Shown here piece by piece: positions 3,388 to 14,241 of a stretch of DNA of 26,038 bases. Made by a program: the position numbers and the translations under genes. Within the stretch, counting starts at the first letter, position 1. Every line of letters begins with the position of its first letter. This stretch comes from a virus (taxonomy: Duplodnaviria; Caudoviricetes): IMG/VR virus record IMGVR_UViG_3300044724_009212, positions 1 through 26,038 of that record. One strand, 5' to 3'. The notes beneath the pieces are model-generated. The model saw nothing but the letters and a program-made list of their open reading frames with translations. It was not told the origin of the DNA and did no database searches.

Positions 3388-4641
3388 CTACTGCGTTGGC
3401 TTGATCGCCCAAAACTGTTTGTTGGTCTTGTCGGTCACTCCTTTGACAGCTCTATAGTGTGAGTGGATCACATTGACTGAGTTACCAGCCCAATCTGCTA
3501 CCTGACCTACATTTTGCTTAAGCTTTTGATAGTAGGTAATGCCCGTGTGCCTCATTGCATCGTTAATCCACCTTGGGCGTGATTCATTACCGCTATCTGC
3601 TACCAAGTCATCAAAGCCTTCCTTGTCCAAGCCATAGAGGGATCGCTTACTGATGCGGTAGCCGGATAAAGCTCTGATAAAGTCATAGAGTTTACGGACA
3701 TTGGTTGGAGATACAGAACCTTGCTTCAGGGCGTAAGGCTTAACCCACTCAACACAGGTATCGGGTAAATCGATAGAACGGCGTTTAGCGCCCTTGCCGT
3801 CAATTGTGACGATATTCTCGTCCCAATTAAAGTCTTCCCAATGCAAGCGGTTAATCTCTTCAGGGCGGATCGCTGCAAATATTCCAAGGGCAAAGAACGG
3901 AACCATCGATCCGGCATCAATCTGCTCAGCCCAACTAAGAAGAGTTTCTACCTCAGGAATATTAAGAGCCTCAGGTACCCTATCCTCAGCATTAGGCTTA
4001 TCGACTTTTGTGAGAGGGTTTTTAAAGCAAAGCTCTTTCTTGAAGCACCAATTAAAGAAGGCATGAAGACAGGCGTATTCATTACGACGCTCTGTGTCAT
4101 TCACATCCTTCATTTCATCGTAAATCCAATCTTCCATGTATTGGCTTTCAATGTCATCGAGGGTCGCATTGTCATCGATATAAATTTCGAAGCGAGTCAG
4201 CCTTCTTTTAAATTGGAACTGATGGTCTTTGCTTGTCCTGACCAACTTTGGATTAGCGAGGTACATTTTTATGGCATCTGATACCAAGGTATTTTTGTTA
4301 ACCGACTCAAATTGAGTCATGTAGAAAATGGCAGCATCGGTAAGAGTTTTGGTATTAGCACCAAACTTTGCAGCTAGAAGGTTTATTGCATTAATAGCAT
4401 CCACTTCCTCAAGATCAGATAGTCTTGTTTTGCGGATAGCACCGCTAAGAAGATATTGCTCGCCTTTATCTCTTTGCTCTTCAGCCCAGCGGTCGGCTTG
4501 TTCCTTAGTTGTGAACCTTTTTCTAGCACGTTTACGCTTGCCGTTTTTATCTCTATGTGGCAAAACTCCATCGACATGCCACTTACCTGTGGTATTACTT
4601 TTTTCTACTTTGATGTATTCTCGATTCCAGTCATGTTTCAT
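3388..4641 (-). CDS. int: Tyrosine recombinase / phage integrase
   Basis: N-terminal arm-binding region (KRARKRFTTKEQA), SAM-like core-binding region, catalytic R (AAIRPEEI), K (GKG), DAMRH and GNS..IHSHY. Adjacent to a tRNA fragment. Confidence 0.95.
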   Translation of the reverse strand: MKHDWNREYIKVEKSNTTGKWHVDGVLPHRDKNGKRKRARKRFTTKEQADRWAEEQRDKGEQYLLSGAIRKTRLSDLEEVDAINAINLLAAKFGANTKTLTDAAIFYMTQFESVNKNTLVSDAIKMYLANPKLVRTSKDHQFQFKRRLTRFEIYIDDNATLDDIESQYMEDWIYDEMKDVNDTERRNEYACLHAFFNWCFKKELCFKNPLTKVDKPNAEDRVPEALNIPEVETLLSWAEQIDAGSMVPFFALGIFAAIRPEEINRLHWEDFNWDENIVTIDGKGAKRRSIDLPDTCVEWVKPYALKQGSVSPTNVRKLYDFIRALSGYRISKRSLYGLDKEGFDDLVADSGNESRPRWINDAMRHTGITYYQKLKQNVGQVADWAGNSVNVIHSHYRAVKGVTDKTNKQFWAIKPTQ

Positions 4642-4687: not shown

Positions 4688-4926
<239 letters not shown>

Positions 4927-4993: not shown

Positions 4994-5026
4994 AAAAGAG
5001 CACCTCTCAGGAGGCGCTCTTTTTTT
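4994..5026. terminator. Likely bidirectional terminator overlapping the orphan's stop codon
   Basis: AAAAGAGCACCTC-tcag-GAGGCGCTCTTTTTTT with A/T tracts on both sides. Confidence 0.65.
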
Positions 5027-6980
5027 GTGCAGATTTTGCAGCTAGTCGAGTCTCTCGGTTCTCAACAATGGTCTGCATATGTTCGTTACCGAAATGGTTG
5101 ATTAGAAATTCTGCGACCTGTTTTGACTTAGCATAAAATGCTACCTGACCATGATGTTGGAAGTATTGAACCTTCTTTCCGGCTCCTGATGCACCCTCTT
5201 CTTTCACTTGTGCATTTAGGGTCTTGATTGCACTAGTGGGCCAAATTTTTACAAAGCTTTGCCATGTCGGATGCAAGAGTGTTTGGCGACCCCAACTGTT
5301 TGTGATTTTAGCGTAGGGTGACTCCTCTTTTCGAGTCATTACATTACGAAGTTTATCTGCAGAAGGTGGTGACATTTTAGCTCGACCTGACCTTCTTTGG
5401 TAATCCCCTACCCATACAACCATTACATCACCCAATGAGCATCCAGCATATGTGTCGGAAACTGTTTCAATTAGGTTGGTCAGTCGCTCTAGCAATGACT
5501 GGTCATCTTGTCCCCACAGCTTTGCTTTAGCGGTTCGTTCTATCACTTTACCAGCTCCAATGTGCATAAGGTCATTTCTGACCTTTTTGGGTAATTCCAC
5601 CATTTCATCATTTGGTGTGGCTATGGGTGCCATAGCTTTTTTCTCCTTAATCCTAAAATACATACCTTGAAGCTGAGCAAGTGCGCCCTCATTTTCAAAA
5701 ATCGCCCAAGATTTGATCCTCTCTATAAGCTCCAAAAAATCACCAAACTTGGCTCTAGTTTGATGATCAAAAGTTTCGTCATAAACACCTTCCCAAAAGC
5801 CTATCGAGTAAATGCGATCCTCTACCCACTCTACAGTAGATTCTAGTGCATCAAAGTCATTAAAGTTCTTTAGATGACCTTTGTAGGAAACTGAGTCAAA
5901 ACCTTCACGGCAAAATTCAAGCATATCCTTCCACTTTGATATGTGTACATTTTTCAAAAGCCTTTTAGCTTCAGGAAGAATTTTGGTAATCAACTCCTGA
6001 ACCTCTAACTCTACATCCCTACTACCTCCCAATACATTTGTCCTAGCATATAGAGGGTGTGCTGCCTTACCATCAAGGTATGATGCTAGTGCAATAGAAA
6101 ACACTCTTACTACTCCATTTTTATAGTAGTTACTTGTGTAATAAGGGATTGTTTTATCTTGGTCTACATAGTCCCTGAATTTTTGAATTTGATATTCTCG
6201 CTCATCAATATCCCACGGGGCATCCTCAGGGATTCTGTCTTTATTTCCATATCCAAATGCTGTGGCATTTGCTGAAGCAATTCCAATTTCATCAACCAAC
6301 CAATCAAGGTTCTTGATCAACTCAAGATAGTAAGACTCATGCTTGTAGAACCAATCGAGTGCCTTTTGAGCATCCTTTATTGGTACATCTTCTCCAAATC
6401 TAAATTTCTGACAGACCCATAGCTTTCTCATATCAAGTCCAGCAATGTGTTCATTATACAGATCACTGAATTTTAGAACCAAGAATGTGTGGCTTGCAGC
6501 AAACATTCTTAAACTAGAAAGCATTCCAACTATGTTGGCATAATTTTGAGTGTCATCATTGCTTACTTTCCAATCTATCGGCTTTGTAATTAGTTTGCCT
6601 GATGAGTCATTAAACAACCCCGCTTCTTTAGCTGATTTTGCAATATCGTAAAACTTATCCAACCAACTGCAAAGAGTCTTGTAATGATCGGACTCAAAAA
6701 AACGTGTTTTAAAAATTACTACATCTCGATTTTCGCTATTTTCGTATTTCTCTGCACCCTCACAAAACCTAAAGGCTAAGAGGTATTTATTTAGGTCCAT
6801 TACCCAACCCCAGCCTCTTTCTTCCCAATCCAGCCAGCCTTCAGAAGTTCGATCCCCATAAGGCTCCCAAGCGTGTCGATCTTCATAACCGCCATAATAT
6901 ACAAACCCCTTCTTCCGCTTAGGTTTCACGGGTTTTTTCTTCCCGCCATTCGCTTTAACTATCCTGTTTGGCTTATCCAC
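5007..6980 (-). CDS. Large orphan protein (~657 aa) in the repressor position
   Basis: ORF track gives 5007..7049. GTG 6980 is preferred because it follows TTTACT-N17-CAAAAT-N6. Lys-rich N-terminus; no family recognised. Confidence 0.85.
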   Translation of the reverse strand: MDKPNRIVKANGGKKKPVKPKRKKGFVYYGGYEDRHAWEPYGDRTSEGWLDWEERGWGWVMDLNKYLLAFRFCEGAEKYENSENRDVVIFKTRFFESDHYKTLCSWLDKFYDIAKSAKEAGLFNDSSGKLITKPIDWKVSNDDTQNYANIVGMLSSLRMFAASHTFLVLKFSDLYNEHIAGLDMRKLWVCQKFRFGEDVPIKDAQKALDWFYKHESYYLELIKNLDWLVDEIGIASANATAFGYGNKDRIPEDAPWDIDEREYQIQKFRDYVDQDKTIPYYTSNYYKNGVVRVFSIALASYLDGKAAHPLYARTNVLGGSRDVELEVQELITKILPEAKRLLKNVHISKWKDMLEFCREGFDSVSYKGHLKNFNDFDALESTVEWVEDRIYSIGFWEGVYDETFDHQTRAKFGDFLELIERIKSWAIFENEGALAQLQGMYFRIKEKKAMAPIATPNDEMVELPKKVRNDLMHIGAGKVIERTAKAKLWGQDDQSLLERLTNLIETVSDTYAGCSLGDVMVVWVGDYQRRSGRAKMSPPSADKLRNVMTRKEESPYAKITNSWGRQTLLHPTWQSFVKIWPTSAIKTLNAQVKEEGASGAGKKVQYFQHHGQVAFYAKSKQVAEFLINHFGNEHMQTIVENRETRLAAKSAQKKSAS

Positions 6981-7015
6981 TATCCGATTTTGTAACGCGC
7001 TAAAAGAAAAGTAAA
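6978..7015 (-). promoter_or_regulatory. Sigma70-like leaderless leftward promoter
   Basis: TTTACT-N17-CAAAAT-N6-GTG, back-to-back with the rightward motif at 7021. Confidence 0.45.
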
Positions 7016-7017
7016 AA

Positions 7018-7063
7018 TTATTCTGAACGATTAGTTCATTAGTACCCACATGATTGGGTAATG
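7018..7063 (+). promoter_or_regulatory. Phage-specific promoter-like motif, copy 3
   Basis: TTATTCTGAAC-N18-CACAT-N9-ATG(7061), overlapped by the inverted repeat GTTCAT..TACCCA/TGGGTA ATGAAC. Confidence 0.55.
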
Positions 7064-7122
7064 AACGATAATACTAATCACTTAATCACTGTATTAAACA
7101 GGGTCGGAATATTTTTATTTTT

Positions 7123-7167
7123 TTATTCTGAACGACCTGATTGATCGGTCGCACTAGCAAGAGCATG
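7123..7167 (+). promoter_or_regulatory. Phage-specific promoter-like motif, copy 4 (replication operon, apparently leaderless)
   Basis: TTATTCTGAAC-N18-CACTA-N8-ATG(7165). Confidence 0.65.
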
Positions 7168-7647
7168 AAAGACGATAATCAGGTAATTACCTTTGCGGTA
7201 GACCCCGGAGCTAGTGGCGGATACGCACTTTGCTTTGGAGGCTTAAGAGCAATCACCCTTCACAATTTAGATACCTTTAGCGATCTATTGGAACACGTTA
7301 CAGAGCTAGAAGGAATCCATAAGGGATTCCTTCGAGCAATCATAGAAGATGTTCCACCCTATGCTGGTAAAAACATACCCAGCTATACCACTTTTAAGTT
7401 AGGCAGAAACTGCGGTCAGCTTGAGGGATTATTCCGAGCTAAGTCTATACCTGTTGAATTTGTTAGCCCTAAAAGATGGCAATCCAAGTTTACAGGCTTG
7501 AAAGGCTTACAAGGAGCACCCCGCAAAAGAGCACTCAAGGATCACGCCTGTAGGTTGTACCCCACCCTATTACCTAAACCAACTCTTCGTACCTGTGATG
7601 CCCTACTCATGGCTCACTATTTTTTCACCCATAGTAATAAATCCTAA
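7165..7647 (+). CDS. RuvC-like Holliday junction resolvase
   Basis: FAVDPGASGG, IIEDV, FKLGRNCG, VSPKRWQ and CDALLMA match the phage RuvC/RNase H-fold motif set. Confidence 0.85.
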   Translation: MKDDNQVITFAVDPGASGGYALCFGGLRAITLHNLDTFSDLLEHVTELEGIHKGFLRAIIEDVPPYAGKNIPSYTTFKLGRNCGQLEGLFRAKSIPVEFVSPKRWQSKFTGLKGLQGAPRKRALKDHACRLYPTLLPKPTLRTCDALLMAHYFFTHSNKS

Positions 7648-8189: not shown

Positions 8190-8957
8190 GTGGCCCATGT
8201 GTATGGTAAGGACGGCAAGCCACACTTCCACCTAACTCCAGCCCAAGCTAAGAAGGAAGGTTTATTCTTCTCTGTTACGGAACATCAAAAGGTATTAGCC
8301 AAGCCAGCCCTTGAAAGATGGTTAATTGGTGAGCACCTCAAAGCAGCATTCAAGTATCCTCCCCGTGAAGGGGAGGATGCTGAAAGCTTTGTTAAACGCA
8401 TCCGTGCTTATACTTGGAAAAATGGTGGTGGAGCTGCTGAGCTTGGAACACAAATTCACGATGCCTTGGAATCTGTCTTGAAAGGTGACAAGAAAGTTGA
8501 GGATTTGGATGTAAATCTTCGCAAGTATGTATCTCCAGCGATCAAGTATTTTACCTCCAAAGAATTTGAGATTCTTGATCTTGAGAAAATCGTAGTGAAT
8601 ACCGAAGAAGGTTATGGCGGAACAGTTGACTGTGCTGCCAAAACAAAGGGCGGTTTAAAATTCATCCTCGATTGGAAAAGTCGTAAAACTTCCGGTAAAA
8701 AAATCGTTAGCTATAGTGGGCAGCCTGAGCAATGTGCAGCATATGGGGCAGCTTACTTTGGTGCTGACGCTATTGAACGAGAGGAAGTTTGGGGGGCTAA
8801 TGCTTACATCTCCACCAACGAGTTTGATGAAAATGGCGAATCCCGTTTTGAAGTAGTCAGCTACGAACCATCTAAAATGAAGTACCACTGGGAAACATTT
8901 AAGATGACGGCTGAGCTTTGGCGTAGAAGTGAAAAGTACGACCCAAGGAAAAACTAA
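8190..8957 (+). CDS. PD-(D/E)XK exonuclease
   Basis: SVT, AAELGTQIH, E..V, YGGTVD, LDWKS and QCAAY are Cas4/RecB-like phage exonuclease motifs. Confidence 0.88.
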   Translation: MAHVYGKDGKPHFHLTPAQAKKEGLFFSVTEHQKVLAKPALERWLIGEHLKAAFKYPPREGEDAESFVKRIRAYTWKNGGGAAELGTQIHDALESVLKGDKKVEDLDVNLRKYVSPAIKYFTSKEFEILDLEKIVVNTEEGYGGTVDCAAKTKGGLKFILDWKSRKTSGKKIVSYSGQPEQCAAYGAAYFGADAIEREEVWGANAYISTNEFDENGESRFEVVSYEPSKMKYHWETFKMTAELWRRSEKYDPRKN

Positions 8958-9916
8958 TGACTGACGATAGTAGCAATTTTACAAAGTTTTTCACCGACCC
9001 TGATGTTCTCAATGGTGTATCTAGAAGGTATCACGATTATGTCAGCAAAGGTGTTGTACCTGATACCATGACTGAGCAAAAACCATCGGAACCTCAAGTG
9101 GGCGGTTTACCTCCAATTATTAATGGGAAGGAATTTCCAGCTAAGTACGATCTAAAGCCAAGGGAGTTTCTAGTGGATGGAATGTTTCAGCGTGGTGATA
9201 ACATTTTGATCACAGCACCATCAAAGTTGGGTAAATCATACTTTTGGGCAAATGCAGCGGTTAGTATTGCTGCTGGTGTACCCTTCTTAGGCAAGACCAC
9301 TACAAAAAGCAATGTGCTCATCTTGGACCTGGAGTTACGAAGTGATGTAGCAATGGATCGATTGATTAGTATATCGCTTGCCCGTGGATTTGATCAAGTG
9401 CCGGACAGTTTGTGGCTATGGTCACTCGCAAAGCATTGCTATGATTTAGAAACAATCTGCGAGGTATTGAATGCCCGTCTAATGGATTTACCAAAGATGG
9501 ATTTAATCGTGGTTGATCCACTTTATGTCCTTGATCGAGGCGACTCGTTTGATGAAAACAATGCCCACTGCGTTACCCGCTTAATGACGGCATTGGAAAA
9601 ATTGACAGTGCAAACGGGTGCAGCTCTTGGATTAAGCCATCACTACCGCAAGGGTAACCTCAACTCTCAAGATTCAATTGATCGTGGAGCTGGCTCAGGA
9701 GCATTCAGTCGATACCCCGATGTTCTCATGTCATTAAGCAAGCATGAGATTGAGGACTGTGTGATCGCAGAGTCTACCACTCGTAACATGAAGTCGCCCC
9801 CAAGCTTTGTATTTCAATTGGATGCACCTCTAGTAAAGGTCAGGTCAGAATTGGATGCGACCAAGTTTCGAAAATATGGTCAACCCGGTATTGTAGAGGC
9901 GAGGGTTGAAGGATGA
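8957..9916 (+). CDS. RepA/AAA_25-type SF4-like replicative helicase
   Basis: Walker A APSKLGKS, LDLE, Walker B LIVVDP, HHYRKG, GAGSGAF and TRN. Confidence 0.88.
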   Translation: MTDDSSNFTKFFTDPDVLNGVSRRYHDYVSKGVVPDTMTEQKPSEPQVGGLPPIINGKEFPAKYDLKPREFLVDGMFQRGDNILITAPSKLGKSYFWANAAVSIAAGVPFLGKTTTKSNVLILDLELRSDVAMDRLISISLARGFDQVPDSLWLWSLAKHCYDLETICEVLNARLMDLPKMDLIVVDPLYVLDRGDSFDENNAHCVTRLMTALEKLTVQTGAALGLSHHYRKGNLNSQDSIDRGAGSGAFSRYPDVLMSLSKHEIEDCVIAESTTRNMKSPPSFVFQLDAPLVKVRSELDATKFRKYGQPGIVEARVEG

Positions 9917-10170: not shown

Positions 10171-10250
10171 TTCTTGCCCATTTTATATCACTTTTTGTCA
10201 CTATGTATCATTTTACACCACTTTTTTCCACTTCTTTTCATTTTGTATCT
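10171..10250. repeat. Phased degenerate 10-bp repeats
   Basis: Seven consecutive T-rich decamers ending in YCA (10171-10240), plus an eighth degenerate one. Confidence 0.7.
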
Positions 10251-10455: not shown

Positions 10456-10653
10456 ATGAAAACTTTATCCAAATCTGACCAAATCGAGGAGCTGGAAACC
10501 CGTATCGATCTACTTAAACAAGACAGCCGGATGTGCTCCTACAGGATTGAATATCACCGCAAAAGAAGGGCTAACTTTCAGGCTGAAATTAAGAGAGCCA
10601 AGGCACTTATCAGAAAATACAGGAAAAAGTCAGTAGAAAGGAATGGTACCTAA
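10456..10653 (+). CDS. Small basic coiled-coil protein
   Basis: 65 aa; heptad-like IEELETRIDLLKQ and an Arg/Lys-rich C-terminal half. Confidence 0.65.
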   Translation: MKTLSKSDQIEELETRIDLLKQDSRMCSYRIEYHRKRRANFQAEIKRAKALIRKYRKKSVERNGT

Positions 10654-10680
10654 TGGTACCCCGTGGTACCCAATGGTCTG
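10641..10680. repeat. Four tandem 10-bp repeats containing TGGTACC
   Basis: gaatggtacc taatggtacc ccgtggtacc caatggtctg. Confidence 0.85.
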
Positions 10681-10744: not shown

Positions 10745-11095
10745 ATGAAATACACCTCACTAAAACATCAAGTAAACCAAATTTGCCCTGATTGGGACGC
10801 CCATAATGACTTTATAAGTCACAATAAGCATTACTACCATCCTAGTCATGAGATTACCATGTGTGATAAGTCGCCATTGACCCAATTTAAAGAAAACTCA
10901 TTAGCAAGGTTCGGCTACAATGGTAAACCCGGTCAAGTGGTTCACCCCATAGAAAATGGATACTACAAATTTTGGAAAGATCGAGGTGGTGTTAAAGGCT
11001 GCTTGGTATCTGAAAAGGAAAACCAAGTGAAGAGCTTTATGGATAAGTATAATCCAAATTCCGACTACGCTACTAACATAACTTTCGATAACTAA
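10745..11095 (+). CDS. Hypothetical accessory protein
   Basis: 116 aa, AT-rich, with its own sigma70-like promoter TGGACT-N17-TATGTT-N8-ATG. Confidence 0.7.
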   Translation: MKYTSLKHQVNQICPDWDAHNDFISHNKHYYHPSHEITMCDKSPLTQFKENSLARFGYNGKPGQVVHPIENGYYKFWKDRGGVKGCLVSEKENQVKSFMDKYNPNSDYATNITFDN

Positions 11096-11151
11096 TTTAA
11101 GGTAATTTGCACTATTATGCACAATATAGAATATTTTAATATAAACACGAT

Positions 11152-11242
11152 GATCCCCTCAGTCACTGAGCATGGAGGCTATGGAGAGCGTAGCACGGGC
11201 TTGTTATCGTTGCCTATTGTAACACTCAGTCCTGAGGGGGTC
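11152..11242 (+). ncRNA. Candidate structured RNA (multi-stem junction)
   Basis: P1 11152-62/11232-42, P2 11165-70/11225-30, P3 11178-83/11189-94 and P4 11197-200/11212-15. The three non-Watson-Crick pairs are all G-U on the plus strand. ATGCAC-N17-TATAAA ends 6 nt upstream. Confidence 0.6.
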
Positions 11243-11253
11243 TTAAGTCTTAG

Positions 11254-11505
11254 ATGACCGACCCTACCTACAGATGCAAGAGGGAGATGATAGAAGTGAT
11301 TACGGAAGGCAAGAGTTACCAAATCAAGCTCCATGCGACAGCAGAAGAGAGCACACCCCATTGGTATATCGTGGGGGACAACAATCAATTTCAGACATTA
11401 GAGCAAGCTGTGATGAATATCAGGAACTTGCCTATGACTACTACACCGCAATCGCCCAAATGTGGGACAACCCAAAGCGAGGCGAACAATCAATTAACAA
11501 AGTAA
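11254..11505 (+). CDS. Hypothetical protein (start may be the internal MIEVITEGK)
   Basis: Composition is more globular than the overlapping 11274..11516 frame. Confidence 0.5.
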   Translation: MTDPTYRCKREMIEVITEGKSYQIKLHATAEESTPHWYIVGDNNQFQTLEQAVMNIRNLPMTTTPQSPKCGTTQSEANNQLTK

Positions 11506-11521
11506 GTAAGGAGTAAACATC

Positions 11522-13011: not shown

Positions 13012-13258
13012 ACTCTACGAAAGTTTAATGACCCGCAAAGAAGTTGCGGAGATGCTTGGAGTAAGTGCCAAGACTGTAGAGCGCATGGAAAAGCGAGGCT
13101 TCATTCCCCGTGTAGAAATACCGGGCGGAAGTGTTAGATATAAGCCCAGCTCAATAATGAAGGCTGTGAATCGTTGGGAAAAATTTCGTCCCGACAACCC
13201 TAATTGCTTAGTGGCATTTGGGGGAGACAATTTAAGAAACCAATATATAGAACGATGA
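13004..13258 (+). CDS. Excisionase-like HTH (HTH_17/AlpA type)
   Basis: LMTRKEVAEMLGVSAKTVERMEKRGFIP..IPGGSVRY; ATG 13004. Confidence 0.85.
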   Translation: MDKLYESLMTRKEVAEMLGVSAKTVERMEKRGFIPRVEIPGGSVRYKPSSIMKAVNRWEKFRPDNPNCLVAFGGDNLRNQYIER

Positions 13259-14241
13259 CTAAAGAACCCGATAACTTATACACTGTAAATAATGCTAATT
13301 ACGAAATGCTCTCGCATGAAGAGTCGCATCAATTACTAGTCGAGCTAAGGGAGCTTGAAAACAAGCTCCCAAACTCATCAGTAGTTGAAGCAAAAAAGAT
13401 CAATCGTATGCAAGACCGCATACGCGAGAAATTAATTATTAGTCACATGGGTATTATCAAAAATGTGGCTTTTAAATTTTGGGACGGATACGAAACTCCT
13501 ACAGAAACCGATGGCTTGAGAGCAGAATTAGTCTCCGCTGGTGTTTTGGGCTTCATGCAAGCACTACCAAACTACTTCAATCAGCCTGTGGAGAAATTCT
13601 CTAGCTGGATATATTTTGGGATCAGGAAGCAAATCTGGCTTCATTTAGGTACAAGGTTTAAGCAATGTTCTAAACAAGCACCTTACTTATTAGAGTCTTT
13701 ATCCAAGGTGGTAACCTGTGCATTGCAACTACGAGAAGAGAATGGTGTTGATCCAACTATTAGGGAAGTTGCCCGTGCTATGTATATATCTCCTGAGCTT
13801 GTTGAAATAGTGCTTCGATTTAATGTCGGGTTCACCTCAGGCGACAAAGATTTGAGTGATGGTGATAGTGACGAAAGCTTTAGCTTGTTCGATACCTTGA
13901 GCGATACAACGGACGCAGATATACACGGCAGACCTAGTCATACAACAAGCTATGGTGATAGGCATTGCTTGTCGGAGAAACTCATGGAATTGCCTCAATT
14001 ACAATCATCAGTGCTTCTACTAAGGTCAGGATACAGTGAGGCTTATGAATGCAGCATCAATGATATTATCGCTGAATACAAGAACCCCGAAAGTAGGGTC
14101 AGAAGTTTAAAAGACGAGTTAACAAAATCGGCTGAAGACAAACCAGCAATTCTTAACTCCATTAACATCTTCTTTGATAACTTAAGTGCTGATAGACCCT
14201 CTGAAGAATTGCTTGAAAAGTTGAACATCAAGGAGTCGTAA
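13255..14241 (+). CDS. Divergent sigma70-family sigma factor
   Basis: Region 1.2 LSHEE, 2.1 IREKLIISHMGIIKNVAFKF, 2.2 ELVSAGVLGFMQA, 2.3 KFSSWIYFGIRKQI, 3 DPTIREVA, an acidic 3.2, and 4 LPQLQSSVLLLRSG..ESRVRSL. ATGA-coupled to the Xis-like gene. Confidence 0.85.
   Translation: MTKEPDNLYTVNNANYEMLSHEESHQLLVELRELENKLPNSSVVEAKKINRMQDRIREKLIISHMGIIKNVAFKFWDGYETPTETDGLRAELVSAGVLGFMQALPNYFNQPVEKFSSWIYFGIRKQIWLHLGTRFKQCSKQAPYLLESLSKVVTCALQLREENGVDPTIREVARAMYISPELVEIVLRFNVGFTSGDKDLSDGDSDESFSLFDTLSDTTDADIHGRPSHTTSYGDRHCLSEKLMELPQLQSSVLLLRSGYSEAYECSINDIIAEYKNPESRVRSLKDELTKSAEDKPAILNSINIFFDNLSADRPSEELLEKLNIKES

Follow-up and report, generated by a model that had tools for sequence, protein, structure and literature searches.

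Related phage RNAs

The c4 RNA of phages P1 and P7 (RF01695) has a three-stem form. P4 CI is a processed antisense RNA that pairs with sequences on either side of it, seqA and seqC (PMC4825925, in part), and a table of PMC2864571 gives Proteobacteria and phages as the carriers of c4. The RNA element described here is comparable with both, as a small phage RNA with several stems, predicted to lie in a longer early transcript and proposed to act by loop pairing on an early message. Unlike them, it has a different core and no Rfam match, its identified hosts are Verrucomicrobia, its candidate targets do not flank it and most of its near-complete carriers have no tyrosine integrase. By analogy the element appears to work like the P4 CI/P1 c4 class, yet it is not a member of that class.

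The element was found in the window, which is the whole stretch of DNA analysed: a complete virus record of 26,038 bases, estimated to represent 65% of the genome. The original prediction had read it as an immunity RNA in the likeness of P4 CI and P1 C4; no match to the c4 or P4 CI families of Rfam was present in the window or in the carrier loci scanned. With all families of Rfam 15, the window gave no match at the gathering threshold and one chance match (E 8.7), 13 carrier loci matched only tRNA and tmRNA elsewhere in their sequences, and 14 short carrier loci gave one match at E 0.78, far below the cut-off. The element also resembles the ribozymes of phages (hammerhead, twister, twister sister, pistol and hatchet) in its compact junction, its invariant unpaired nucleotides, its intergenic or tandem placement and its indifference to neighbouring genes; it differs from small self-cleaving ribozymes in that no Rfam match or permuted form was found, and in that its loop has a compositional bias and a target signal in one clade. 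Like the candidates of Fremin, Bhatt and Kyrpides (2023; PMC10690425), it comes from public viral contigs and is supported by covariation. The motif was not found in four supplementary tables and documents of that study, overlap with one of its 10,006 candidates being possible, and the parts of it that were compared assign the motif no function. A literature search with subscription journals largely outside its reach returned no description of the motif. Compact, with about 20 near-invariant nucleotides, without an Rfam entry and present in 28 otherwise unrelated phage groups, the element may well represent a new class of functional RNA, regardless of which explanation weighed below is correct.

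Structure of the RNA element

The rightward gene block of the window comprises a RuvC-like resolvase, an unannotated open reading frame (ORF), an exonuclease, an AAA helicase, small ORFs, a primase-like ORF, an excisionase-like helix-turn-helix protein and a sigma factor; the tail and virion genes are on the minus strand. From its position, the unannotated ORF after the resolvase is a putative SSB. Among named genomes, the nearest relative is L021, a contig from a single-cell assembly of Verrucomicrobia (resolvase 64% identical), and the host is presumably a marine verrucomicrobium; the exception is L020, a contig of 3.9 kb that was binned as Bacteroidetes. The RNA and its parts are as follows.

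11152..11242, plus strand: structured RNA with a three-way junction, a type-1 member of its family (fold z score; covariation in alignments A2 and A6)
11152..11170, plus strand: 5' strand of the closing stem P1, 11 bp + 6 bp with a 2-nt bulge, partner 11225-11242 (pair probabilities 0.92-1.0)
11171..11177, plus strand: conserved linker J1/2, consensus A/C-A-U-R-G-W-G (near-invariant in 89 elements)
11178..11194, plus strand: P2 hairpin, 6 bp, GAGAN loop (70/73 distinct pattern matches with 5-6 of 6 pairs, unselected)
11197..11215, plus strand: P3 (4 bp) with a variable 11-nt loop at 11201-11211, the candidate antisense loop (P3 pairing in A2)
11216..11224, plus strand: conserved linker J3/1, UUGAACA or UUGAAACA in the family (74 + 13 of 89 elements), UUGUAACA in the window

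All of the sequences named in the original prediction were found where it had placed them, and the fold of about 91 nt on the plus strand (11152-11242) was recovered with a z score of -3.44, none of 200 shuffles being equal or better. The minus strand over this interval also folds (z -2.86); the wobble pairs, which were said to favour the plus strand, do so with three G-U pairs. The arrangement of two inner hairpins within a closing stem needed support from relatives: the minimum free energy (MFE) structure keeps the 11 + 6-bp closing stem and has neither of the inner hairpins, and it is covariation that selects the predicted structure. The difference between the two is 1 kcal/mol (-38.4 for the predicted structure versus -39.4 for the MFE), with inner-pair probabilities of about 0.1. 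The window scored 70.7 and 55.8 bits with models R1 and R2, being itself part of both training sets.

In order, the element consists of the closing stem, an AUGGUG/AUAGAG linker, the 6-bp hairpin with its GAGAN loop, the dinucleotide AC, a short hairpin whose variable loop is rich in U, and UUGAA(A)CA. Its core amounts to about 20 near-invariant unpaired nucleotides amid freely covarying stems. Among 89 elements, J1/2 has its U and its G in all 89, its first A in 88 and its last G in 86, and the P2 loop has GA in 89/89 and GAGA in 88/89. J3/1 of the window is the sole GUA variant among the 89, the motif having been required by the search pattern, such that these counts are not independent. The element may bear a resemblance to the ends of CRISPR repeats, to box C/D or k-turn motifs, to the loop E motif and to domain 5 of group II introns. 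The P3 loops of the family range from 4 to 21 nt and contain 51% U and 17% A, compared with 27% T and 28% A in the flanks.

The contig of a relative has 15 substitutions and two indels in 11062-11148 versus five changes in the RNA. Four of these five fit the fold or the consensus (11171 and 11176 are changed to the family consensus and a U-G pair in P2 becomes C-G at 11182) and none falls in the loop, among the 20 of 24 differences listed.

A family carried by unrelated phages

The RNA is a copy of an uncatalogued, strongly covarying family carried by dozens of unrelated phages. Syntenic relatives were located through the resolvase and carry the same core at the same site, with different stems and loops (L006; L007, L031 and L033; L008 and L021; L042); pattern scans afterwards found the element in unrelated phages. 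A relaxed type-1 search gave 50 distinct matches with a bimodal distribution of P2 pairs, 13 having six of six, none five and 37 four or fewer. A second pattern with no pairing requirement gave 110 viral loci which, with five earlier loci, yielded 73 distinct sequences; P2 had all six pairs in 53, five in 17 and fewer in three. Collecting homologues had been proposed as a check on the fold, and their stems covary: the covariation score of A2 was not attained in any of 500 shuffles. In this alignment of 18 sequences, selected on P2 only, P3 was 94.4% paired, P1 was paired in 76.7% of cells and inner P1 covaries. In A6 (86 rows, fitted to the model) 93.6% of 1178 cells were paired, compared with 60.6% when shuffled and 32-44% with slid partners. 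The closing stem had at least three pairs in 89/96 relaxed matches, with linker and loop nucleotides near-invariant.

An exact 18-mer scan of the loop hairpin returned five loci, all by chance, a single-sequence resolvase scan of viral contigs returned nothing, and the first pattern applied to the genome collection was too loose (120 loci, none passing the stem filter). L342, L326, L309, L019 and L482 were discarded as chance or doubtful matches. With either model, only two of 151 Verrucomicrobiota genomes matched, the seed genome among them, and the element is therefore regarded as a phage element.

On shared proteins the 68 carrier loci fell into 28 phage groups, with no protein family present in more than three groups in the flanking sequence examined. 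The carriers are podo-, sipho-, Mu-like and jumbo phages, and the neighbouring genes include a T7-like RNA polymerase (seven loci), a resolvase directly downstream (five loci), terminase subunits, DNA polymerase, head protease and endolysin. Five T7-like phages (L377, L380, L384, L389 and L399) encode a tyrosine integrase as well as a single-subunit RNA polymerase, and in them the element lies directly before the polymerase gene. There are up to three copies per record, frequently in tandem and with differing loops. Many copies sit at the end of a transcription unit, not its start, and a U-tract was present within 70 nt downstream in 26/86 elements. Two copies are in frame within long ORFs, one in a terminase large subunit (L284 1991-2068, minus strand; acidic linker, amino acids 317-343) and one in a Mu-type transposase (L343 834-917, plus strand; N-terminal). 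In phages resembling L532, the element and the stop codon of the primase overlap (L532 6867-6945, plus strand).

This distribution bears on the possibility that the element is a new self-cleaving ribozyme, or a processing element that recruits a nuclease, which cuts polycistronic transcripts by means of an active junction and for which the loop is a tolerant spacer. The invariant unpaired core among covarying stems would suit such an activity, as would the lack of a common neighbour and the placement just after stop codons, before terminators and in tandem; ribozymes adjacent to phage genes may process polycistronic transcripts (PMC6765202, in part). We nevertheless consider it unlikely. There is no likeness to Rfam ribozyme families, and a P1-closed permutation pattern gave three matches in viral contigs, none of them permuted (two were tandem arrays and one was chance). 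Constitutive cleavage would be harmful to the in-frame terminase and transposase copies, and the U bias of the loop and its target signal in the clade would be left unexplained. If the core does cleave, it would represent a new ribozyme class.

Predicted pairing of the loop with the start of the resolvase gene

The original prediction proposed that the 11-nt loop pairs with the 5' ends of two early transcripts 4 kb upstream, in the following genes.

7061..7144, plus strand: 27-codon ORF derived from a 105-nt duplication, target site 1 (7064-7073) at codons 2-5
7165..7647, plus strand: RuvC-like Holliday junction resolvase, heading the rightward operon; its codons 3-5 hold target site 2, 7171-7179 (phrog_1770, E 4e-15)

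The loop can pair with 7064-7073 over 10 contiguous positions with at most one G-U, and this is the sole such site on both strands of the 26-kb contig, barring the antisense of the RNA itself. Shuffled loops had a site of this type somewhere in the contig in 68% of cases, and within the 150-nt control region in 0.75%. The second site can indeed pair over 9 bp with two G-U, but its class is common, with a shuffle mean of 25 sites per contig and 11% in the control region; the other 9-bp sites on the plus strand that lie nearest are at 8964, 9195 and 13251. Both sites had been placed immediately after start codons, which is so for the first (codons 2-5) but not for the second, which starts at codon 3. 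The caveat that they might stem from a single duplication was borne out: both lie within one 105-nt duplication with a 13-nt exact repeat at 7018/7123, and they therefore count as one. Among 36 upstream regions listed, the duplication was seen only in the window and L026. The latter keeps pairing at both sites via three A/G changes, of which two alter amino acids; its duplication has a pairing-compatible A-to-G change. The two early transcripts had also been taken to be leaderless; 4/17 starts examined have a canonical -10 box with a 7-nt distance to the start codon, which makes leaderless early mRNAs plausible, but the resolvase start of the window has none.

Whether loop and target change together was examined in five independent syntenic phages only (the window, L006, L007, L008 and L042), the loops of which share no sequence. 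Since the hypothesis was formed on the window alone, the other four are out of sample. In a z-normalised five-by-five matrix of loops and resolvase starts, the own assignment ranked first of 120 permutations in 11/15 settings and second to fourth in the other four, and the own target was the best of five in four of five rows in most settings. For the four out-of-sample phages against shuffled loops, the Fisher p was 0.012 for the longest Watson-Crick run and 0.0023 for energy. This signal stems from L042, with eight contiguous Watson-Crick pairs from the start codon on (top 0.26% of windows), and L006, with 9/10 pairs (top 0.63%). L008 and L007 have five-pair cores at codons 3-5; L008 is weak (18th percentile of windows) and L007 has no good duplex (82nd percentile, worse than most). 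Among 16 orthologous gene families in the four long clade records, the resolvase scored best (p 0.004, 1/24). Of the 49 gene families tested, four of those listed had p < 0.05, about the number expected by chance apart from the resolvase, which had been named in advance. The predicted co-variation of loop and target holds in part, being seen across the clade, with L008 weak and L007 lacking it, and not clearly family-wide; on these comparisons the clade signal is probably real.

Outside the clade, the loci of 67 elements were not clearly enriched in complements to the loops they carry (mean mid-p 0.46 for the whole locus and 0.43 for start regions, 6/67 below 0.05), and 66 elements compared with the next start codon gave a mean p of 0.44. 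Over 21 pairs of element and resolvase the mean p was 0.48-0.51 (the start of L042 being mis-picked in this set), and the resolvase is therefore not a general target of the family. In the T7-like group, pairing with the adjacent RNA polymerase start was not significant (p 0.058; 109/720 after collapsing). A RuvB-like target was rejected, its p of 0.014 (1/24) falling to 0.24 on 10 copies (the L381 start is a downstream ATG there). A scan for perfect loop complements genome-wide gave no signal, the one 26-nt match being a second copy of the element. The family-wide tests have low power: the records are mostly fragments, starts picked by rule are sometimes wrong, seeds of 6-8 bp are common by chance and targets in the host are possible. 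These tests were neutral on a guide function across the family, with at most a tilt as set out below. As a separate observation, the L407 loop is predicted to pair with the RuvB-like start of L573, a 162-kb phage, at -11.8 kcal/mol (p 0.009) with a bulged A like that of L042; the nine further copies tested there are unmatched.

A proposed mode of action

Given the conserved core, the variable U-rich loop and its statistical match to the resolvase start in the clade, we favour the reading, to which we assign a probability of about 0.4, that the element is a conserved scaffold presenting an antisense loop, and that pairing of this loop with the first resolvase codons dampens translation of the first early gene. 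The loops are U-rich and A-poor, as expected of antisense to A-rich coding starts. The RNA would be part of a longer transcript, placed in its leader or between two genes, from which a host nuclease may excise it, or it may act from within. The invariant core would fold by tertiary contacts or bind a host factor, and so protect the RNA and present the loop, which would seed on codons 2-5 of the resolvase message. The weak P3 could then open to let the duplex extend, an opening that is needed for the duplexes of L042 and L006; if the message is leaderless, the region of codons 2-5 would be the sole accessible place to block the ribosome. That the RNA likely dampens the first early gene follows from the match of its loop to the start of that gene in the window phage and some relatives, and since the RNA is encoded 4 kb downstream within that rightward gene block, early and replication genes would come under negative feedback. 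Support for the pairing is statistical, and processing and repression are put forward as parts of the model.

A broader version holds that the family is a modular, reprogrammable phage small RNA (sRNA), with an invariant core that has no partner protein of its own and an exchangeable guide loop that each phage adapts to the opening codons of one particular message, often a leaderless one. Copies in tandem would then be multi-guide arrays, the core might catalyse or recruit silencing, and the RNA would supply lysogeny control in temperate Verrucomicrobia phages without cI. We regard this extension as doubtful. If the loop is a guide, the element would be a minimal antisense scaffold.

Transcription of the RNA

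The prediction of a promoter placing the transcription start at the first paired base was sustained as to the motif and not as to its strength.

11117..11145, plus strand: weak promoter-like hexamers (absent from the calls of a sigma-70 scan)

The ATGCAC-N17-TATAAA motif is present, but its first hexamer matches TTGACA at 2/6 positions and the scan did not call it. In a relative the -10 hexamer is changed at 11142, with the spacer length kept through compensating indels. A sigma-70-like site was found upstream of 5/86 elements and none in 81/86, and the hexamers are more likely part of an operon leader than a dedicated sRNA promoter. Neighbouring ORFs mostly share the strand of the RNA (upstream 57/65, downstream 54/67, with a crude ORF caller). 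Contigs assembled from RNA runs, from which ends, strand and level are not readable, gave low, patchy cover of the early operon, with one contig spanning the RNA; run X2 gave no aligned contig.

The general lack of a dedicated promoter would also fit a cis element bound by a host protein or by the ribosome, affecting stability, antitermination or translation of the adjacent gene, with the matches between loop and resolvase arising by chance. The next start codon is frequently inside or just past the closing stem, the 35 elements that have the next ATG no more than 40 nt away lean slightly towards pairing with it (mean p 0.36-0.39), and the identified hosts, being Verrucomicrobia, would allow for a lineage-specific factor. 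That so many copies end transcription units rather than start them is at odds with such a role, as is the window itself, in which the loop does not pair with the start of the downstream gene (p 0.87-0.90); moreover, the out-of-sample p of 0.002-0.012 would have to be luck. A cis role of this kind seems distinctly unlikely to us.

Lysogeny and the cI position

The genes and sites that bear on a role in immunity are as follows.

3388..4641, minus strand: tyrosine integrase (PF00589, E 1e-6; phrog_1, E 1.7e-31)
4775..4818, plus strand: tRNA-Phe-like 5' half beside the integrase, attP-like core (from sequence)
5007..7049, minus strand: large orphan gene (680 amino acids) in the slot of cI, divergently oriented with respect to the resolvase, a rival candidate repressor

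In the original prediction the RNA replaces cI as the immunity repressor of the clade, in the manner of P4 CI and P1 C4, and silences the early operon of both resident and superinfecting phages. The integrase and the attP-like tRNA half are consistent with a temperate phage of this kind: contigs of host tRNA align to 4774/4780-4817 and then run on as tRNA 3' halves, and ARAGORN found no whole tRNA at 4775..4818. A tRNA-Phe-like half is at the same place in L008, judged by its translation. The absence of a lambda-type cI, which had been predicted, was upheld in the clade, no HTH_3 over the cut-off and no Peptidase_S24 being detected in 4/4 genomes, two of them complete. Further, the target heads an operon divergent from the integrase side, the loops vary between phages as immunity types would, and integrase was present in 5/5 T7-like carriers tested, in which the RNA precedes the RNA polymerase.

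The replacement of cI was not upheld, and we consider the immunity reading quite improbable. Searched for PF00589 only, with serine and Mu-type recombinases outside the search, 14/50 carriers and 4/14 near-complete carriers encode a tyrosine integrase; the 10 near-complete carriers without one include genomes of 162 kb and 347 kb. In L035, L036 and L040, which are fragments of 4.2-5.9 kb with exonucleases 62-78% identical to that of the window, no element was found at the corresponding site, and only 12/84 exonuclease-linked loci have one within 7 kb. From the integrase count and the three close relatives without the RNA at this site, immunity is probably not the job of the family. The loop-target match is weak or absent in two complete relatives. 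In P4, seqA and seqC flank CI within a single leader (PMC4825925, in part), whereas no such pair of complementary sites flanks the RNA here, the best sites being 4 kb upstream and within one duplication.

The repressor slot, moreover, is occupied by the orphan protein. It belongs to a fast-diverging family of 600-680 amino acids present in this slot in nine related loci and the window, with one further database protein (14-24% identity). The orphan has no Pfam, PHROG, NCBIfam, atlas or fold match; its AlphaFold model is poor (mean pLDDT 57.9, pTM 0.37), Foldseek gave no match at E 0.001, and these family and fold searches identified no DNA-binding signature. The C-terminal pattern HP...F...P and A.WL is conserved in the orphan family, and L036 has a 379-amino-acid form. 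On the preferred reading, in which the loop dampens the first early gene, the RNA may still help to maintain lysogeny, its action as a repressor being a candidate role. A guide function of the loop would answer how integrase-bearing phages with no recognisable cI, such as the window clade and the T7-like temperate phages, restrain their early genes.

Other features of the locus

A gene directly 3' of the RNA has two overlapping frames.

11254..11516, plus strand: gene with two overlapping open frames (both open and partly conserved in the seven loci shown)

Counterparts are found in L006 (13560-13820), L033 (8440-8700), L008 (13330-13600), L035 (3930-4160), L040 (3985-4179) and L042 (3455-3680). 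Frame one has a conserved middle part and no ATG in L006, L033, L008 and L042; frame two has a conserved ATG start, with conservation in the C-terminal part only. This pattern suggests either overlapping genes or recoding. A long near-perfect hairpin with no clear U tail is present 3' of the RNA in the clade relatives L006 (13540-13580), L007 (14160-14192), L008 (13315-13350) and L042 (3400-3452); the corresponding hairpin of the window, at 11240-11262, is weak.

The sigma factor of the window, a phage sigma-70-family protein (13204-14241, plus strand), was not detected by tblastn in the flanks examined of syntenic relatives. Downstream of the element in L121 is a 68-nt tmRNA-like piece (8724-8791, minus strand), with tRNA-like ends and a short hairpin, that passes the Rfam tmRNA cut-off. 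Finally, short pyrimidine-rich tandem repeats and three GGTACC-type repeats with 10-nt spacing lie between early genes of the window, at 10179-10248 and 10644-10677, and are possible origin or binding sites.
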